Notes: a model not told the origin generated them from the sequence alone. A DNA stretch of 64,000 nucleotides from a virus (IMGVR_UViG_3300043418_000120:96001-160000); one strand, 5' to 3'; shown: positions 26,796 to 35,802, counted from the first letter of the stretch. Program-made: numbers and translations.

Positions 26796-27098
26796 ATGAA
26801 GAAGTTTCTAGTTTTACTGTTGGTTGGTTTGAGTTTTGCGGCTCAGGCTCAGCATTATCATGGTGATCATTTTCATCGCGGAGCCTACTACAACTGGGCT
26901 GCTCCAGCAATCATTGGTGGTGTTATTGGATACAGTATGGCTCAGCGCCCTACTACTGTAGTTGTCCAACAGCCACCAGTCTACGTTCAACAACAGCCAG
27001 TCTATGTTGATCGTCCAGGTATTCCTTACGGATACCGTTATGAGAATGTATTGGATGCGAACTGTGGCTGCTACCGAGTAGTCCTAGTTCCAAACTAA
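26796..27098 (+). CDS. Secreted/membrane Pro-rich hypothetical protein
   Basis: Signal peptide, APAIIGGVIGY, QQPPVYVQ. Confidence 0.7.
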   Translation: MKKFLVLLLVGLSFAAQAQHYHGDHFHRGAYYNWAAPAIIGGVIGYSMAQRPTTVVVQQPPVYVQQQPVYVDRPGIPYGYRYENVLDANCGCYRVVLVPN

Positions 27099-27403
27099 TT
27101 GTTGTAATCCCTTCAAAGCGAAGGACTTCTGGACGCGGGTTCGACTCCCGCCATCTCCACCACAAGCGCATTGGCGTAGTATGAGTACTCTAAAACTCGA
27201 CTGCGAAAATCTTAGTTCTAGTGTGCTTTTGATGGGGATGCCATGGTTTCGACAGGGGTAGATAGTAGAGACGGCAACACGGTAGGCGATGACCGTTAAT
27301 CAAGCAAATCAAAATAAATGCAAACGAAAGTTCATTTTTGATGGCAGCCTAATCGGCACCATCTGAGTTTCGGTGGGTGTACTTGGAAACAGAAACACCT
27401 ACC
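27099..27403 (+). ncRNA. ssrA: Circularly permuted two-piece tmRNA
   Basis: T arm plus CATCTCC-A-CCA (ends 27162) precedes the 5' strand GGGGATG (27234-27240), with a G3.U70 pair; tag ORF 27320-27352 ANESSFLMAA*; outer ends approximate. Confidence 0.9.
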
Positions 27404-27405
27404 AT

Positions 27406-27413
27406 TATAAATA
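27406..27413 (+). promoter_or_regulatory. T4-type late promoter
   Basis: TATAAATA. Confidence 0.7.
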
Positions 27414-27463
27414 ATTACTTACATCATGAACACACAACTTGATTTACACACACAGGAGTTTAC

Positions 27464-27792: not shown

Positions 27793-28326
27793 TTGAAATA
27801 TCTAATTTCAATTCTCATTACCATATCATTGTTTGTTATGTTGCTCTTCTCGACAATTCCGTCAAGAGATATATCAACTGGTATCGTAAGTGTACCTTAC
27901 CAAAATTTGACTGCTTCTGAAAAGAAAGAAGTCGACTGTCTCGCAGATAACATCTGGTATGAGGCTCGTTCCGAACCTAAAGATGGCCAAGTGGCTGTCG
28001 GTCTTGTCACTCTCAACAGAGTCAAGTCTAAGGTGTTCAACAGTAGTGTTTGCGGTGTCGTACATCAAAAAACAAAAACTACTTGTCAATTCACATGGCT
28101 ATGCGAAGGTAAGAAAACTATCACCGCAAAGCAACGTGAACTGTATGAAGATGTCCGTGACATCGCTCTTTATGTATACTTCAATCATGCTGTGATTGAG
28201 GATCTTACTGGAGGGGCTATATACTATCATGCCGATTACGTGTCTCCTGGCTGGAAAAAGCTGAAGAAGACTACGAAGATCGGTCGCCATATCTTTTACA
28301 CCGACCCGAAAGTGACTAACCTATGA
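27793..28326 (+). CDS. SleB-like cell wall hydrolase
   Basis: CLADNIWYEARSE, CQFTW, YYHADYVSP, IGRHIFY. Confidence 0.88.
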   Translation: MKYLISILITISLFVMLLFSTIPSRDISTGIVSVPYQNLTASEKKEVDCLADNIWYEARSEPKDGQVAVGLVTLNRVKSKVFNSSVCGVVHQKTKTTCQFTWLCEGKKTITAKQRELYEDVRDIALYVYFNHAVIEDLTGGAIYYHADYVSPGWKKLKKTTKIGRHIFYTDPKVTNL

Positions 28327-28883
28327 TGGAAAAACTCAATATCAACCTGAACGCAGGTGGTGATACCAAACAAAACTTCTTGTTGGTAATGGACGAAATT
28401 TCTTTGTCCTCTTGTAAGCAGATGGTCGAATGGATCTTTGCGTGTAACTTCAGCGAAGAGCAGTTTGATATTCTGAACCTTGTTATCTGTAGTCCAGGTG
28501 GCGATCTGAACGCAGCGTTTGCTGTTATCGACACCATGAAGGGCAGCTCTATTCCAATCCGAACTATCGGTCTTGGTCAAATTGCTTCTGCTGGTCTATC
28601 AATCTTCATGGCTGGTACAGCTGGTCAACGTATCCTGACACCAAACACTTCTATCCTCTCGCACCAATACTCATGGGGATCGTTTGGTAAGGAGCATGAA
28701 CTTATTGCTCAGGTGAAAGAATTTGACTTGACTACGAAACGCCTGATCGCGCACTACAAGAAGTGCACTGGTCTTGAAGAAGACGTTATCCGTGAGAAAC
28801 TGTTGCCACCACAGGACGTTTGGCTAAGTGCTGCTGAAGCAAAGAAGCTGGGTGTTTGTGACGTTGTGAAGGACTTATACTAA
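28323..28883 (+). CDS. clpP: ClpP-like serine protease
   Basis: SPGG, IASAG (Ser), SHQ (His), QDVW (Asp), AEAKKLG. Confidence 0.88.
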   Translation: MMEKLNINLNAGGDTKQNFLLVMDEISLSSCKQMVEWIFACNFSEEQFDILNLVICSPGGDLNAAFAVIDTMKGSSIPIRTIGLGQIASAGLSIFMAGTAGQRILTPNTSILSHQYSWGSFGKEHELIAQVKEFDLTTKRLIAHYKKCTGLEEDVIREKLLPPQDVWLSAAEAKKLGVCDVVKDLY

Positions 28884-30808: not shown

Positions 30809-30926
30809 TTGACATTAATCCAGTGTAGTTGTATAATAACAGTGTTGGGTTTGATGTTAGGACTAAGTATAACCTTGGAGTCAGTAGGGTTATCTGCTTG
30901 ACATTAAACATGAACTGAGGTATAAT
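30809..30926 (+). promoter_or_regulatory. Two tandem sigma70 promoters (30809-30837, 30898-30926)
   Basis: TTGACA-N17-TATAAT twice; degenerate palindrome at 30871-30891. Confidence 0.8.
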
Positions 30927-30932
30927 TGATCC

Positions 30933-31229
30933 ATGATGAATGAAAGACAAACAGAGGTGATGCGAATCGCCCAAGAAGAGTCAGCTGAAATCATCCAAGC
31001 AATCAGTAAGGTTCTGCGTTTCGGTAAAGACAACTGTCATCCAGACAGCACTCAAACGAACGCTGAGCATCTAGCTGAAGAAGTTGGTGACATGCTGTGT
31101 ATGATCGAACTACTGATCGAAACAAAGGTTGTTAGTGAGAGTCAGGTACAGAAGGCTGCGAGGTTGAAGCGCAATAAACTTCGGAAATGGTCAAAAATAT
31201 TTTCCGAAAAAGATGAAAATTGTGCTTGA
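30933..31229 (+). CDS. MazG-like nucleotide pyrophosphohydrolase
   Basis: EESAEIIQAISK...EEVGD. Confidence 0.8.
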   Translation: MMNERQTEVMRIAQEESAEIIQAISKVLRFGKDNCHPDSTQTNAEHLAEEVGDMLCMIELLIETKVVSESQVQKAARLKRNKLRKWSKIFSEKDENCA

Positions 31230-31254
31230 CTGTTATAAATAAAAGAGGTATAAT
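31226..31254 (+). promoter_or_regulatory. sigma70 promoter with embedded late promoter
   Basis: TTGACT-N17-TATAAT with TATAAATA at 31234-31241. Confidence 0.8.
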
Positions 31255-31289
31255 AGATACCTCTAAACGAATTAAGGATTTAATCTTCA

Positions 31290-31409
31290 ATGTTACTCTG
31301 TCAAAGTTATCACCAGCCGATGAAAGCCACTTTGTGGTCTGGAGATACACGCACAGCAGTATCATTCGGCTCAAATCCAGAGATTAGTGTAGGGGTGTTA
31401 GAGGTATAA
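31290..31409 (+). CDS. Putative attenuator leader peptide (39 aa)
   Basis: AAGGA RBS; MLLCQSYHQPMKATLWSGDTRTAVSFGSNPEISVGVLEV; terminator follows. Confidence 0.55.
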   Translation: MLLCQSYHQPMKATLWSGDTRTAVSFGSNPEISVGVLEV

Positions 31410-31434
31410 GAAGTCCAAACTTCAAACCAAAGCG

Positions 31435-31465
31435 CCCCAAGAGATGAAAGTCCTTGGGGTTTTTT
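31435..31465 (+). terminator. Intrinsic terminator (attenuator)
   Basis: CCCCAAG...CTTGGGG-TTTTTT. Confidence 0.8.
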
Positions 31466-31481
31466 GTTTTGTAGCTTGAAT

Positions 31482-31750
31482 AACCTTACAGTTCGTAAGG
31501 TTATCGCTTGACAATAAATTGAATGTCAGGTATAATTGATGTTCTGATGTTGATAAGGTGCTAAAGTTAAAGACCCTACGGTTCGTAAGGTTACTAAAAT
31601 TAGTGCTTGACTTAATTGATGACTTCAGTTATAATTGAGGTTCTGATGTGATGTGCTAAGATTGAAGTGCGAAAATTGCTGAATTGCTATGAACTTCGAA
31701 AATAGTGCTTGACATTATAACAGAAATAAGGTATAATTCTTAGTTCTGAT
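31482..31750 (+). repeat. Three ~100-bp tandem promoter units (31508-31536, 31607-31635, 31709-31737)
   Basis: TTGAC-N-N17-TATAAT each followed by GTTCTGATGT; palindromes before the first two. Confidence 0.8.
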
Positions 31751-31765
31751 GTTCTTTAAAAATTT
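31750..31765 (+). promoter_or_regulatory. rrn-type boxA antitermination site
   Basis: TGTTCTTTAAAAATTT, ~10 nt before the first tRNA. Confidence 0.6.
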
Positions 31766-31775
31766 ATCGCCATGT

Positions 31776-31850
31776 GCACGATTCGTCTATCGGTTAGGAC
31801 GCTGCCCTTTCAAGGCGGAAAGACGAGTTCGATTCTCGTATCGTGTACCA
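31776..31850 (+). tRNA. tRNA-Glu(TTC)
   Basis: Cloverleaf, loop CTTTCAA, CCA. Confidence 0.9.
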
Positions 31851-32082
31851 TATTAAAGCGTATTGGGTTACCAATACCAGTAGGTGGCTATGATGGTTCG
31901 AAGATGCTCGACGGAGCACGCTGTCATAGTTACAAGAAAGACGGAAACGCCCTTGCGGTGGAAACAGTAGTCGCGCTGGATTAGGTTGGCTTGTAATGTG
32001 TTTGATGACCAGTCGCTAGACGTTAGCGTGGTAAGCCTACGGTGTAGGTTGTTGTCATTCATCCCAGTATGTTTTAATATGG
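31848..32082 (+). ncRNA. Unknown structured RNA closed by a 20-bp stem
   Basis: CCATATTAAAGCGTATTGGG pairs with CCCAGTATGTTTTAATATGG. Confidence 0.55.
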
Positions 32083-32087
32083 TAAAT

Positions 32088-32163
32088 GCGGGTAAGGTGT
32101 TTATGGATACACACGAGTCTTCCAAACTTGAGTAGACCAGATCGTTACTGGCTACCCGCTCCA
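32088..32163 (+). tRNA. tRNA-Gly(TCC)
   Basis: Loop CTTCCAA; T loop ATCGTTA. Confidence 0.85.
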
Positions 32164-32173
32164 TGTTTTGTAT

Positions 32174-32248
32174 ACCCGATTAGCTCAGAGGTAGAGCACT
32201 CGCTTGATAAGCGATAGGTGAGTGGATCGTTACCACTATCGGGTACCA
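32174..32248 (+). tRNA. tRNA-Ile(GAT)
   Basis: Loop TTGATAA. Confidence 0.88.
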
Positions 32249-32253
32249 TGTTT

Positions 32254-32316
32254 TAGGATAGGTTCTGCAAATAACACTGCTAACTTTGGATGTCTAGCGA
32301 CAAAAACTATCCTGTT
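32254..32316 (+). ncRNA. CWGCAA-scaffold RNA copy 1
   Basis: AGGATAG-GTTCTGCAA...CTATCCT-GTT. Confidence 0.7.
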
Positions 32317-32322
32317 GATTTT

Positions 32323-32407
32323 GGAAGTGTAGGAAAATTGGTAACCCCAGGAGACTGTAAATCTTCCGCCTCTGGCATTGTTGGTTCAAGTCCAACCTCT
32401 TCCACCA
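32323..32407 (+). tRNA. tRNA-Tyr(GTA)
   Basis: Loop CTGTAAA, long variable arm. Confidence 0.88.
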
Positions 32408-32540
32408 ATTTCGCTGTCGAGAGGCAGTGATACGTTCCCAACATTAGGGTTGGGCGTGTTAAAGTTCGGGTCTTCACCAGAAGGTCTTTTCGGTTGCCAC
32501 GATAGAGCAACGGCTAAAGTTCGTAATGCCACAAATTCAT

Positions 32541-32616
32541 GCTTCGTTAGCTCAATTGGGAGAGCACTGCACTGTCACTGCAGAGGTAAGGGGATCGAAA
32601 CCCCTACGAGGCGCCA
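32541..32616 (+). tRNA. tRNA-Asp(GTC)
   Basis: Loop CTGTCAC. Confidence 0.9.
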
Positions 32617-32620
32617 ATTT

Positions 32621-32691
32621 TAGGATGAGTTCTGCAACAAAAATAGAACACCAAACTTTTAATTTGACATGTTCGTCAAAATCATCCTGTT
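32621..32691 (+). ncRNA. CWGCAA-scaffold RNA copy 2 (Lys-UUU anticodon loop)
   Basis: AGGATGA-GTTCTGCAA...CAAA-CTTTTAA-TTTG...TCATCCT-GTT. Confidence 0.7.
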
Positions 32692-32697
32692 GTATTT

Positions 32698-32772
32698 GGG
32701 GGCAGTAGAGGGCTACGGGTAACCCTTGCAAGGTTGCTGTCTAGATCGGTTCGATACCGACGGTCTCCACCA
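32698..32772 (+). tRNA. tRNA-Ala(TGC), atypical D arm
   Basis: Loop CTTGCAA; G3.U70; ACCA. Confidence 0.7.
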
Positions 32773-32859
32773 AGAGCAAATAGAAGTCTTGTTTTGATGC
32801 ATGGCTTCTCAATGTTTGTTAGTTTCAATGGGTGTTATAGAAACTACCACTAATTTTAT

Positions 32860-32934
32860 GCCTTGTTAGCTCAGTGGTAGAGCTCCCTCCTTACAAGTGG
32901 GATGTCGGCGGTTCGAACCCGTCACAAGGTACCA
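32860..32934 (+). tRNA. tRNA-Val(TAC)
   Basis: Loop CTTACAA. Confidence 0.88.
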
Positions 32935-32939
32935 AACAT

Positions 32940-33031
32940 GGAAAGTAATGCAGCTGGGATGGTCCGGCGACCAGCCTTGAAAACTGGGTTCTCAGAAATG
33001 GGATGGGGTTCGACTCCTCTGCTTTCCGCCA
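32940..33031 (+). tRNA. tRNA-Ser(TGA), 8/4 fold
   Basis: Loop CTTGAAA; 8-bp acceptor stem, 4-bp T stem; G73. Confidence 0.8.
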
Positions 33032-33036
33032 AAATT

Positions 33037-33111
33037 GCGTTGTAAACTTTGACGATGAAGTCTCGGCTCTTAACCGATGGGAAGATAGTTTGAATCTATC
33101 ACGACGCACCA
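33037..33111 (+). tRNA. tRNA-Lys(CTT), divergent
   Basis: Loop CTCTTAA; T loop TTTGAAT. Confidence 0.7.
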
Positions 33112-33173
33112 AAGCCTCGCCATGACACTCGGCGTATAATGAGATAAGTGATGTGTTCCGAAGATTACTTTGG

Positions 33174-33248
33174 GGTGGGTATAGTGTAGTGGTAGCACCC
33201 AACTCTGTGAAAGTTGTAGTATGGGATCGTTACCCATTATTCACCCCA
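33174..33248 (+). tRNA. tRNA-His(GTG)
   Basis: Loop CTGTGAA; G-1:C73. Confidence 0.85.
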
Positions 33249-33260
33249 AAGTAATTTTGT

Positions 33261-33336
33261 GCCTCTGTAGTTCAACGGATTAGAATACGGTGCTACGAAC
33301 GCTGAGACGGGAGTTCGATTCTCTCCAGAGGTACCA
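33261..33336 (+). tRNA. tRNA-Arg(ACG)
   Basis: Loop CTACGAA. Confidence 0.9.
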
Positions 33337-33347
33337 AAAAGATTTTC

Positions 33348-33421
33348 GCCCTATTAGTATAATGGCATTACACCTGTTTTGTAATCAGGTTACGGCAGTT
33401 CGATTCTGTCATGGGGCACCA
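33348..33421 (+). tRNA. tRNA-Thr(TGT)
   Basis: Loop TTTGTAA. Confidence 0.85.
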
Positions 33422-33430
33422 GTTGACCAT

Positions 33431-33551
33431 TAGGTTCATTTCAGCAATCAAAAATAATCTTTCTGTAAAAAAGAGGGTCTGGGTTCGAATCCCAGCGGTG
33501 AGTTGGTCTTCACTGTGGTGTAATGGTAGCACGAAAAAAGTTGAACCTGTT
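33431..33551 (+). ncRNA. CWGCAA-scaffold RNA copy 3 (fully permuted tRNA with GUA anticodon)
   Basis: AGGTTCA-TTTCAGCAA, anticodon arm, T arm, closed acceptor stem, D arm, TGAACCT-GTT. Confidence 0.8.
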
Positions 33552-33557
33552 TAACAT

Positions 33558-33632
33558 ATCGCATTCGACTTCAGGTGAGGTCATCAGCCTTTCAAGCTGA
33601 CTAGACGGGATCGTTACCCGTATGCGATACCA
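33558..33632 (+). tRNA. tRNA-Glu(TTC) copy 2
   Basis: Loop CTTTCAA; T loop ATCGTTA. Confidence 0.85.
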
Positions 33633-33640
33633 AGAATTAT

Positions 33641-33719
33641 TCCGTAGAATCCAAGCAAGGTGCAAGGACGTGACTGTTAATCACTGATTAGACTGGTTCG
33701 ATCCCAGTGTACGGAGCCA
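33641..33719 (+). tRNA. tRNA-Asn(GTT), atypical D arm
   Basis: Loop CTGTTAA; GCCA. Confidence 0.75.
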
Positions 33720-33872
33720 GTATTAGTCGGAGTAATTAACCGAAAAGTAAATAGTAGACGATCTCGCCATCTCGGTCGTCTTTGCAGTGTATACTGCGTC
33801 AGCTTGGTTGCACAAGTTGAGAAACACTGGGGTAAGAGTCCCAATTGATCGATGTGCACTAATTGTTTTCGT

Positions 33873-33948
33873 GGGGGTATAGCTCATCTGGTAGAGCAGG
33901 TGCTTTGCAAGCATCAGGTGGCGGGTTCGAGTCCTGTTGCCTCCACCA
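33873..33948 (+). tRNA. tRNA-Ala(TGC)
   Basis: Canonical; loop TTTGCAA. Confidence 0.92.
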
Positions 33949-33957
33949 AGTTTTTAT

Positions 33958-34031
33958 CTGGGTATAAGATAGTGGTAGTCTCCGAGCCTTGGATGCTTGA
34001 AGCGGGAGTTCGATTCTCCATTCCCAGACCA
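33958..34031 (+). tRNA. tRNA-Pro(TGG), divergent
   Basis: Loop CTTGGAT. Confidence 0.75.
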
Positions 34032-34040
34032 ATTTTTTGT

Positions 34041-34118
34041 TGGGGTATCGCCTAGTCTGGCCTAAGGCAACGGTCTTTGAAATCGTCATCATCAGTTCGA
34101 ATCTGATTACCCCTGCCA
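34041..34118 (+). tRNA. tRNA-Gln(TTG)
   Basis: Loop CTTTGAA. Confidence 0.88.
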
Positions 34119-34181
34119 GTTTTTAAGGAAATTCAAAATGAAAGTATTAAAACGAAAACCCCGAAAGTGTCGAAAGCGCAT

Positions 34182-34258
34182 GGGTCTATAGTTTAACGGC
34201 AAAAACATCTGGCTTTTAACCAGTAAGACTCTCGGTTCGAATCCGAGTAGACCCACCA
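34182..34258 (+). tRNA. tRNA-Lys(TTT)
   Basis: Loop CTTTTAA. Confidence 0.88.
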
Positions 34259-34359
34259 TATAAAAACATACTTGCTGAAGTTGGTTCAGTTAGACAGGGA
34301 GATCCAATTGCCTATGTCGTTGAGTGTGTTTTTATATGGTATATAAGTATATACTACAT

Positions 34360-34434
34360 TCCAGTGTAGCACAGCGGTAGTGCAGTTGACTGTTAATCAA
34401 TTGGTCGTTGGTTCGATCCCAGCCACTGGAGCCA
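34360..34434 (+). tRNA. tRNA-Asn(GTT) copy 2
   Basis: Canonical; loop CTGTTAA. Confidence 0.92.
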
Positions 34435-34443
34435 AATTTTTAT

Positions 34444-34517
34444 AGCGGGTAGGGTGGTCACCACTCCAGTCTCATAAGCTCGGAGCATCGGCAGTTCGAA
34501 TCTGTCACCCGCATCCA
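34444..34517 (+). tRNA. tRNA(CAT), atypical, 1-72 mismatch (initiator-like)
   Basis: Loop CTCATAA; A1/A72; reduced D arm. Confidence 0.65.
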
Positions 34518-34521
34518 TTTT

Positions 34522-34580
34522 TAGGATCCGTCCAGCAAATTACCTAATTCAACTTGTAATTGAAAAATAAGGATCCTGTT
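34522..34580 (+). ncRNA. CWGCAA-scaffold RNA copy 4 (Thr-UGU anticodon arm)
   Basis: AGGATCC-GTCCAGCAA...TTCAA-CTTGTAA-TTGAA...GGATCCT-GTT. Confidence 0.75.
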
Positions 34581-34587
34581 GATATTT

Positions 34588-34663
34588 GCCCTTATAGCTC
34601 ATCTGGTAGAGCAACCGCCTTGTAAGCGGTAGGTGGTCAGTTCGAGTCCGACTGAGGGCACCA
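34588..34663 (+). tRNA. tRNA-Thr(TGT) copy 2
   Basis: Loop CTTGTAA. Confidence 0.92.
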
Positions 34664-34671
34664 TTTATAAT

Positions 34672-34748
34672 CGGAATGTAGCGCAGTCTGGTAGCGCACC
34701 TCGTTTGGGACGAGGGGGTCCAAGGTTCGAATCCTTGTATTCCGACCA
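34672..34748 (+). tRNA. tRNA-Pro(TGG) copy 2
   Basis: Canonical; loop TTTGGGA. Confidence 0.93.
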
Positions 34749-34765
34749 ACACTTTGAAAGATAAC

Positions 34766-35029
34766 ATGACAACAATTAACCCTATTAAGAACAACTTGTA
34801 CATTGCTCAGAACAAGAAAGAAGATACCACTGAGATGGGCATCATTATTTCTAATGGTCTTGGTAACACTGCCTCTGCGTATGTGTTGGCTATTGGTCCT
34901 GACATTACAGAATGTAAAGTAGGTGATACAGTTTATGTTGACTGGTCAAAGAGTTACCCAGTAACTATTGACGGTGCGCAGCGTGCGATGATCAAGATTG
35001 ATCATGTGATTGCTGTCGTTGAAGAATAA
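34766..35029 (+). CDS. groES: GroES-like co-chaperonin
   Basis: INPIKNNLYI, TEMGIII mobile loop, VLAIGP...KVGDTV. Confidence 0.8.
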   Translation: MTTINPIKNNLYIAQNKKEDTTEMGIIISNGLGNTASAYVLAIGPDITECKVGDTVYVDWSKSYPVTIDGAQRAMIKIDHVIAVVEE

Positions 35030-35030
35030 T

Positions 35031-35106
35031 CTCGCCATGGTCTAACGGATAAGGCAACGGTCTTCTACACCGTCCGATGGGAGTTCGAATCTCTCTGGCG
35101 AGGCCA
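35031..35106 (+). tRNA. tRNA-Arg(TCT)
   Basis: Loop CTTCTAC. Confidence 0.88.
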
Positions 35107-35113
35107 AAGATTT

Positions 35114-35219
35114 TAGGTTAGGTTCTGCAAACAAAATTAGCTGGTTCGATTCCAGCATTATCCACCCAGTCGAAAGACACTCGGATGATGTGCCACGGTG
35201 GCAATCAAACTAACCTGTT
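35114..35219 (+). ncRNA. CWGCAA-scaffold RNA copy 5 (T arm-acceptor-D-like arm)
   Basis: AGGTTAG-GTTCTGCAA; GCTGG-TTCGATT-CCAGC; ATTATCC/GGATGAT; CTAACCT-GTT. Confidence 0.78.
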
Positions 35220-35228
35220 GTATTATAA

Positions 35229-35305
35229 GCGGATGTGATGGAATTGGTATACGTGTTGGTCTTAGAAGCCAAATTTTGTGAGTTCGAGTCTCACCATCCG
35301 CACCA
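35229..35305 (+). tRNA. tRNA-Leu(TAG), short variable loop
   Basis: Loop CTTAGAA. Confidence 0.85.
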
Positions 35306-35316
35306 ATTTTTTTTAT

Positions 35317-35392
35317 GCCTGGATAGCTCAGTTGGTAGAGCGGCAGATTGAAAATCTGCGCGTCGGCGGTTCGATCCCGTCTCTAGGCACCA
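35317..35392 (+). tRNA. tRNA-Phe(GAA)
   Basis: Loop TTGAAAA. Confidence 0.92.
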
Positions 35393-35398
35393 GTTTAT

Positions 35399-35475
35399 TA
35401 CGGAGTAGTTCCAATTGGCAGAACGGCGGATTCCAAATCCGTTAGTTGGGGGTTCGAGTCCCTCCTCCGTAGCCA
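35399..35475 (+). tRNA. tRNA-Trp(CCA)
   Basis: Loop TTCCAAA. Confidence 0.88.
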
Positions 35476-35481
35476 GATTAT

Positions 35482-35557
35482 GGTGATGTAGCTCAGTTGG
35501 CAGAGCAGCTCCTTCATACGGAGACGGTCGGGAGCTCGGATCTCTCCATCACCACCA
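35482..35557 (+). tRNA. tRNA-Met(CAT)
   Basis: Loop TTCATAC; unusual T loop CTCGGAT. Confidence 0.75.
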
Positions 35558-35717
35558 AGTTTTGAGATAGACGTTTGGATGAGTCCCTTATGTGCTAGTG
35601 CCCTATTCTTGAGCATGACACACCAGTAGCGGCATAAGGTTGTTAAACTCTCCTATACGAGACAAGCCCAGCGAGTCCTTGAGAAAGATAGTTGGAACTC
35701 TCAAAAACCTATAATAT

Positions 35718-35791
35718 GCGTGTGTAGTTTAATGGTAAAATCAGACGTTGCCAACGTTTAGTTGAGAGTTCGATTCTCTCCACCCGCACCA
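35718..35791 (+). tRNA. tRNA-Gly(GCC)
   Basis: Loop TTGCCAA. Confidence 0.85.
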
Positions 35792-35802
35792 AACATAGTC
35801 AT

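Follow-up and report, generated by a model that had tools for sequence, protein, structure and literature searches.

A candidate translation-coupled attenuator with an all-amino-acid leader peptide ahead of a phage tRNA array

To our knowledge, how phages control their large sets of transfer RNA (tRNA) genes is largely unknown. In the present study, we analyzed a stretch of 64,000 nucleotides (nt), hereafter the window, which comprises bases 96001-160000 of the 173,880-base-pair uncultured virus record IMGVR_UViG_3300043418_000120, a record rated complete. Between a MazG-like gene and a tRNA array lies a short leader unit with an open reading frame (ORF) that holds all 20 amino acids, which raises the question of what such a unit does in front of tRNA genes. 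A first-pass annotation had read it as an attenuator and a possible general sensor of tRNA supply. Our comparison with related phages suggested a translation-coupled transcription attenuator heading the tRNA array, in which transcription would stop only when a ribosome gets through the all-amino-acid ORF in time; judged from the sequences, we hold this reading to be evenly poised between right and wrong. The parts of the leader unit are as follows, in window positions.

31226-31254, + strand: promoter P1 (TTGACT-17-TATAAT), consensus, conserved in all homologues
31244-31264, + strand: inverted repeat AGAGGTAT-N5-ATACCTCT, spanning the -10 box and the predicted transcription start
31260-31396, + strand: rod-like leader fold, in which the 5' end pairs with the 3' half of the ORF
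31275-31279, + strand: Shine-Dalgarno (SD)-like AAGGA, with 10 nt to the ATG here and 12-13 nt in relatives
31290-31409, + strand: leader ORF, 39 codons plus TAA, with all 20 amino acids
31392-31438, + strand: antiterminator, made of helices A, B and C, -18.9 kcal/mol
31392-31399 with 31431-31438, + strand: helix A, GGGGUGUU with AGCGCCCC, overlapping the terminator 5' flank and arm
31403-31405 with 31426-31428, + strand: helix B, GGU with ACC, the ACC belonging to the invariant CAAACCAAAG
31410-31414 with 31419-31423, + strand: helix C, GAAGU with ACUUC, a small hairpin placed at the stop codon or immediately behind it
31428-31466, + strand: terminator, CCCCAAG (31435-31441) with CUUGGGG (31453-31459), a GNRA loop, extended by A-U pairs, and U6 (31460-31465)

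The leader ORF encodes the peptide MLLCQSYHQPMKATLWSGDTRTAVSFGSNPEISVGVLEV, in which the twentieth kind of amino acid (Ile) first appears at codon 32. The promoter, the AAGGA motif and the 39-codon ORF complete by codon 32 were all recovered as the first-pass annotation had described them. The P1 transcript is predicted to begin near 31260 (CCUC...) and to measure about 205 nt when terminated. P1 and the terminator are of the E. coli type, and the leader unit is present as a single copy in the genome. The terminator stem reads CCCCAAG-A-GAU-GAAA-GUC-CUUGGGG followed by U6, with an inner GAU/GUC stem and a GAAA loop, and has a folding energy of -19.3 kcal/mol. The end of the ORF, GGGGTGTT at 31392-31399, had been claimed to pair with AGCGCCCC at 31431-31438, and the two segments are indeed complementary, with six Watson-Crick and two G-U pairs.

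Related units were collected by scanning viral and metagenome collections for the terminator sequence and by three peptide profile searches. These searches added 16 distinct peptides, with DNA available for 13, and the phage contigs that carry them reach 170 kilobases (kb); individual relatives are given below by handles such as L016 and P0006. The DNA comparisons leave out P0004 and P0011. For the AAACCAAARNNCCCCAAG pattern, 80 of 97 stretches were listed and 77 new loci were screened with model R1; L043 and L053 were the only true homologues among these 77. Other candidates were rejected. L014 and L015 proved to be chance matches of the pattern AATCCAGAGAT...CAAACCAAAG located inside unrelated genes, and P0010 and P0012, from a profile search, were spurious WD40-like repeat proteins and were dropped.

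The pairing elements of the unit were conserved among these relatives. The terminator was nearly invariant, its variants being the loops GAAA, GAGA and GUGA and the compensated inner stems GAU:GUC and GAU:AUC. When the terminator 3' arm was omitted from folding, the same three-helix antiterminator was obtained in 13 of 13 homologues; the ORF too is retained in these. In the covariance-model alignment, which leans to structure, 93.7% of the antiterminator cells could pair, compared with 18-53% when the partners were slid; the plain MAFFT alignment gave 89.4%. Helices B and C of the window and of L026 were misregistered in the MAFFT alignment, and the homologues were therefore re-aligned with the covariance model. 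Four antiterminator pairs carried compensatory double changes, and none of 500 shuffles reached the covariation score. Helix A is formed in relatives by GGGGUAC at the ORF end with GUACCCC, and helix C occurs in four different compensated sequences. In every homologue, 7-9 nt separate the GGGG from the stop codon, although three codon phases are used. The antiterminator and the terminator of the window are nearly iso-energetic (-18.9 vs -19.3 kcal/mol), each far below its shuffles. These results bore out the claim that an antiterminator overlaps the 5' arm of the terminator CCCCAAG...CTTGGGG-T6, and they added conservation and compensatory changes to it.

The effect of ribosome position was evaluated by thermodynamic constraint folds, in which the transcript was cut before the terminator 3' arm and a 27-nt footprint was kept unpaired at each A-site codon. 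Without a ribosome, and with the A site anywhere from codon 2 to about codon 31, the antiterminator was the minimum-energy structure in 13 of 13 homologues; it was lost only with the footprint over the last 8-9 codons, stop codon included. These modelled folds agree with the ribosome-mediated attenuation geometry proposed earlier, a proposal in which the long rod-like fold had been missed.

These folds suggest the following scheme. The P1 transcript would carry the 39-codon ORF, whose last codons, GGGGUG(UU), would serve as the antiterminator 5' arm, with the terminator 5' flank and 5' arm as the 3' arm. If a ribosome stood on the last 8-9 codons or the stop codon while the polymerase made the terminator, the arm would be masked and the terminator would form. 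The short leader RNA would then be released; the rod can hide its own SD and AUG, and it probably silences the released RNA. If the ribosome were late because charged tRNA was scarce, or had never loaded, the antiterminator would form first and the polymerase would read on toward the tRNA genes. An ORF containing every amino acid would in this way report the general supply of charged tRNA, or overall translation competence, and not the supply of one amino acid. We infer the timing of these steps, the direction in which the unit responds, and how large the response is compared with the downstream promoters.

The reading frame of the leader was then compared across the DNA homologues. Frame 0 contained no stop codon in 13 of 13 homologues, while the other two frames contained 1-6 stops, and it is open in all 14 distinct DNA copies. 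Six of the homologues came via called proteins, a subset biased to open frames; the seven found by DNA pattern alone gave the same open-frame picture. At least 148 nucleotide substitution events have occurred, and 5.5% of random single changes create a stop, so that about 8 stops would be expected without selection and none was seen. At least five insertion or deletion events, including a 6-codon insertion, were all multiples of three. These results indicated that the leader reading frame is selected, and we infer from them that the leader ORF is translated.

Completeness of the amino-acid set was assessed against several backgrounds. Among stop-free stretches in the six frames of the window, all 20 amino acids were present in only 0.3% of those with 39 codons and 0.04% of those with 32. 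Independent draws gave a complete 39-mer in 0.4% of cases with the family composition and 2.9% with uniform composition. Since 2 of the 492 window ORFs of at least 39 amino acids are complete, the single window is weak evidence, and the case rests on the homologues. Complete peptides numbered 14 of the 16 in the test, and 15 of 17 once the later-found L043 was included. The place of residues that occur only once changes from copy to copy (Y, F, P, D and A, and K in P0011). The FGY of the other copies reads FGS in the window, which has its Y at residue 7 instead; P0006 has TIGY for SFGY and its F in QSF instead; P0008 has NLEI for NPEI, with P in RTPS and its only A in YAN; and P0013 has GESRT for GDTRT, with D in INDSS instead. 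In P0011 and P0013, the C-terminal half is replaced and a 6-residue insertion is present, and all 20 amino acids are still there.

A tree-aware null model was then applied, in which the branch and column of each substitution on a FastTree tree were fixed and only its outcome was redrawn. With BLOSUM62 outcomes, at least 14 complete tips were reached in 0 of 5000 runs. With outcomes drawn from the residues seen in the column, the most conservative version, the probability of at least 14 complete peptides was 0.0003-0.0013 over five rootings; the peptide alignment is short and the tree noisy, and the result held under every rooting. The amino-acid diversity that the first-pass annotation had proposed to look for in related leaders was retained despite divergence, beyond the phylogeny-aware null. 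These results suggested that the completeness of the amino-acid set is probably under selection.

The genes that the leader precedes were examined in the window and in the relatives. The neighbouring features are as follows.

30933-31229, + strand: MazG-like nucleoside triphosphate pyrophosphohydrolase gene, 98 amino acids, the conserved left neighbour of the leader
31508-31536, 31607-31635 and 31709-31737, + strand: three consensus promoters between the terminator and the first tRNA
31776-38091, + strand: tRNA array of 29 tRNA genes covering all 20 amino acids, tRNA-Glu(UUC) first

The 29 genes of the array are all the tRNAs of the genome, and full coverage of the 20 amino acids agrees with what had been reported for it. 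The 16 further distinct leader homologues all occur in related uncultured phages, and the leader unit always stands directly after the MazG-like gene. In all homologues with downstream DNA, tRNA-Glu(UUC) comes next after the leader, as the first gene of an array of 25-28 tRNAs. Four arrays were examined; all 20 amino acids are covered in three of them, and 19 kinds were detected in the other. Leader and array both hold 20 of 20 kinds in the window, G001, G002 and G004; L016 is a counter-example to such mirroring, because its leader lacks Asp although tRNA-Asp follows. The more distant MazG-like relatives (L002-L009) have no leader, and in them tRNAs are absent nearby or a tRNA follows the gene directly, so that the leader unit is confined to one clade. 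In L004-L007, the MazG-like gene stands inside the tRNA array, with tRNA-Ala about 10 nt past its stop codon and no leader. This linkage without a leader in a more distant phage group indicates that the MazG-tRNA linkage is older than the leader.

The dependence of the tRNA genes on read-through differed among copies. In L016 and L019, tRNA-Glu and tRNA-Cys lie 51 nt past the terminator with no consensus promoter between, and read-through is needed there for these first tRNAs to be transcribed. The three further promoters that had been entered as a caveat for the window, starting at 31508, 31607 and 31709, are present, and GTTCTGATGT comes after each. Between the terminator and the tRNAs, relatives carry two promoters of the same module, one or none, indicating that the spacer 31470-31760 expands and contracts by duplication. 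The proposed read-through toward the tRNA genes accordingly holds as a requirement for the two promoterless relatives, but in the window it could only be additive.

Taken further, the attenuator reading becomes a pan-amino-acid translation test. The unit would sense starvation or the loss of tRNAs to anticodon nucleases or other tRNA-depleting defences, it would read into a full tRNA set, and a residue lost from the leader would be replaced elsewhere in it. We put this extension forward tentatively, as a possibility with the balance somewhat against it. If true, the leader would put attenuation logic to a different use, as a general gauge of decoding capacity that is linked to the decoder supply; the gauge could let the phage sense tRNA loss, which bears on the arms race over tRNA-cleaving defences. 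A composition kept with residues at shifting positions is an unusual evolutionary signature, and it is searchable elsewhere.

Several points weigh against the attenuator and its sensing role, the bias to open frames of the six homologues found via called proteins among them. The statement that stalling at any codon would free the antiterminator was too strong. Under a 9-nt leading-edge assumption, the sensing zone holds 15-20 amino-acid kinds, and Glu, as well as Ile, Val or Asp in some copies, occurs only where a stalled ribosome would mask the arm. Each amino acid occurs 1-5 times in the window leader with no tandem runs, which implies low sensitivity to partial starvation; single codons would respond to drastic tRNA loss and little to mild starvation. 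Two peptides are incomplete, L016 being without A, D and H and P0006 without V. The phage's own anticodons can read 33 of the 39 leader codons vs a genome baseline of 79%, a difference that is not significant (p = 0.24). As for structure, only helix A is exclusive to the antiterminator state, since helices B and C can coexist with the terminator, and the support for helix A is a conserved complementarity with a single double-compensatory change, from A-U to G-C in the window, plus several changes from U-A to U-G. As for translation, a spacing of 10-13 nt puts the SD at the long end of the range for this phage, and both SD and AUG are paired in the rod fold. At least one promoter follows the terminator in 12 of 14 distinct DNA copies, and with such promoters in the window, read-through only adds to tRNA transcription.

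The rod-like fold and the mode of sequence evolution bear on the alternatives. The fold, from the 5' end to the stop codon, is common to 12 of 13 homologues. In it, the Ile-Arg-Gly-Gly codons (GGGG) are the partner of the 5' CCUC and its adjacent bases, the AAUCC in the Asn-Pro codons is that of the SD region and the Phe-Gly codons are that of the AUG region, while CAUCUCC pairs with GGAGAUA; the apex is a hairpin, GCCAC/GUGGU, around the Trp codon (31326-31338). In the MAFFT alignment, 71% of the rod cells were paired vs 32-47% with slid partners, the paired fraction being inflated because the structure was taken from one member. Thirteen pairs carried compensatory double changes, and none of 500 shuffles reached the covariation score. 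The ratio of nonsynonymous to synonymous divergence (pN/pS) was 0.72 for the leader ORF vs 0.25 for the MazG-like gene of the same genomes. Variability at codon positions 1, 2 and 3 was 0.197, 0.193 and 0.208 in the leader vs 0.117, 0.090 and 0.273 in the MazG-like gene, and synonymous divergence (pS) was 0.39 vs 0.61. The lower pS points to an RNA-level constraint on the leader, and the rod fold explains its invariant nucleotide blocks and flat codon-position profile. These results indicated that the leader does not evolve like a protein: the frame is kept, most residues are free and the RNA is constrained.

The main rival is a stand-alone small RNA gene, possibly of dual function, whose terminated RNA of about 205 nt acts in trans by RNA pairing or protein binding, with translation optional and the tRNA adjacency reflecting co-expression and not control. 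Such a gene would have its own consensus promoter and strong terminator, as found here, and most relatives do have a separate tRNA promoter. The highly structured, covarying rod and the nucleotide-level constraint seen in the pN/pS of 0.72 suit it as well, and the CAAACCAAAG segment next to the terminator is invariant and single-stranded. There is also a precedent in rnTrpL, an attenuator RNA that is released and functions in trans according to PMC6614838. The open frame, the multiple-of-three indels and the retention of all 20 amino acids through moved residues are left unexplained by it, as are the near iso-energetic antiterminator that uses the terminator 5' arm and the two relatives whose first tRNAs are promoterless. 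A small RNA function is moreover compatible with attenuation and does not exclude it. As a replacement for attenuation, we consider it unlikely, though deserving of serious attention.

An ordinary small-protein gene, with a functional 39-amino-acid product and a normal terminator, would make the antiterminator pairing and the complete amino-acid set by-products. Seventeen distinct sequences share the ORF, the C, W, D-x-R-T, F-G-Y and N-P-E-I positions being conserved among them, and gene callers annotate a hypothetical protein there in several metagenomes. These conserved Cys, Trp, D-T-R-T, N-P and E-I positions coincide, however, with nucleotides that are paired in the rod (L013 fold), and a pN/pS of 0.72 with equally variable codon positions is unlike the neighbouring gene. 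Residues that occur once reappear elsewhere and are not kept in place, and the exchange of the C-terminal half in P0011 and P0013 left the composition complete. The peptide matched no family in Pfam or PHROGs at E <= 0.1. The small-protein explanation is improbable on this evidence.

An attenuator of the same architecture might instead read only ribosome-polymerase coupling, that is, general translation capacity or ribosome availability, with no sensing role for the 20 amino acids. In the constraint folds the antiterminator is the default without a ribosome, so any loss of translation would give read-through, and the leader has no tandem regulatory codons. The statistically supported retention of all 20 amino acids would then go unexplained, and we regard this version as still a little more doubtful than a small protein. 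A chance ORF of chance composition in a non-coding spacer would fit the 2 of 492 window ORFs of this length that hold all 20, but the open frame, in-frame indels, kept composition and covarying structures across 17 distinct homologues make it very unlikely. We consequently retain the translation-coupled attenuator as the preferred reading, at the strength given at the outset.

Further observations concern the surroundings of the leader. P1 and the MazG-like gene before it overlap, the -35 box sharing bases with the gene's stop codon, and P1 is one of about 35 near-identical + strand promoters of the genome, of the type TTGAC-N17/18-RGGTATAAT. The palindrome over its -10 box is unique in the genome and was conserved in the 13 homologues compared for it; it might be an operator, although no other promoter of the genome shares it. 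In transcripts from the MazG promoters, a hairpin AGAGGUAU-N5-AUACCUCU (-9.8 kcal/mol) would sequester the 5' CCUC. Only 7 nt separate the ATG of the MazG-like gene (30933) from the -10 box of a promoter at 30898-30926, so that transcripts from this promoter would have no leader or almost none. Transcripts from a second promoter, at 30809, would carry a leader, and in that leader the GAGG of the -10 region could be an SD sequence. Two of the three promoters downstream of the terminator are preceded by CCTTAC-NGTTC-GTAAGG hairpins without a T-run (31470-31760).

Within the array, a terminator-like hairpin at 35804-35822, directly after tRNA-Gly(GCC), closes the first block of 24 tRNAs. An ORF of 166 amino acids (35859-36359) with its own weaker promoter (35824) precedes the last five tRNAs. 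The segment of about 230 nt between tRNA-Glu and the next tRNA (31851-32087) contains no credible ORF and has no Rfam match. A similar sequence recurs at the same place in L011, L013, L018, L020, L022, L023 and L026, and its stem arms match within phages and differ between them; this segment looks like a structured RNA of no known family. A transfer-messenger RNA (tmRNA) gene at 27038-27443, about 4 kb upstream of the array, was called beta-type and permuted (ARAGORN tag ANESSFLMAA), and a ClpP-like gene lies near it at 28323-28883.

A blastn search against 50,697 phage records gave no GenBank phage that matches the region. A full-text literature search of incomplete coverage found no described all-amino-acid leader or attenuator ahead of phage tRNA arrays.

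Leader-peptide attenuation is known for amino-acid and synthetase operons, whose leaders are rich in a single amino acid or in a few; examples are trpL, hisL, leuL, thrL and pheL, and the ilvGMEDA leader is multivalent. In the classical attenuator, the antiterminator 5' arm lies in the end of the ORF, so that it is covered by a ribosome standing at the stop codon and exposed when the ribosome is delayed. Ribosome-mediated attenuators of this kind are treated in PMC1183508 and PMC3082878. Like the trp, his, leu, thr and ilv attenuators, the phage unit has a short leader ORF, seen here as an open frame, and a downstream intrinsic terminator, and its antiterminator shares the terminator 5' arm and has its own 5' arm in the ORF end. 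Unlike them, the phage leader retains all 20 amino acids without codon runs, and the downstream genes are phage tRNAs and not biosynthetic or synthetase genes. The partner of the arm (GGGG with the 5'-terminal CCUC) lies upstream of the SD and not in the ORF. Most copies also have extra promoters past the terminator, with dependence on read-through only in L016 and L019, and no Rfam leader family matched the unit. For rnTrpL of Sinorhizobium meliloti, an attenuator-derived small RNA with a function in trans as described in PMC6614838, the likeness is that a terminated leader transcript with a small ORF could itself be a functional RNA. The phage leader has no sequence relationship to rnTrpL. 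T-box riboswitches bind one specific uncharged tRNA directly and have no ORF. Searched at E <= 1 over 31226-31470, Rfam gave no leader, T-box or other covariance-model match, and sensing in the phage leader would go through the ribosome. As in the T-box riboswitches, tRNA charging would nevertheless be coupled to terminator read-through by way of an antiterminator.

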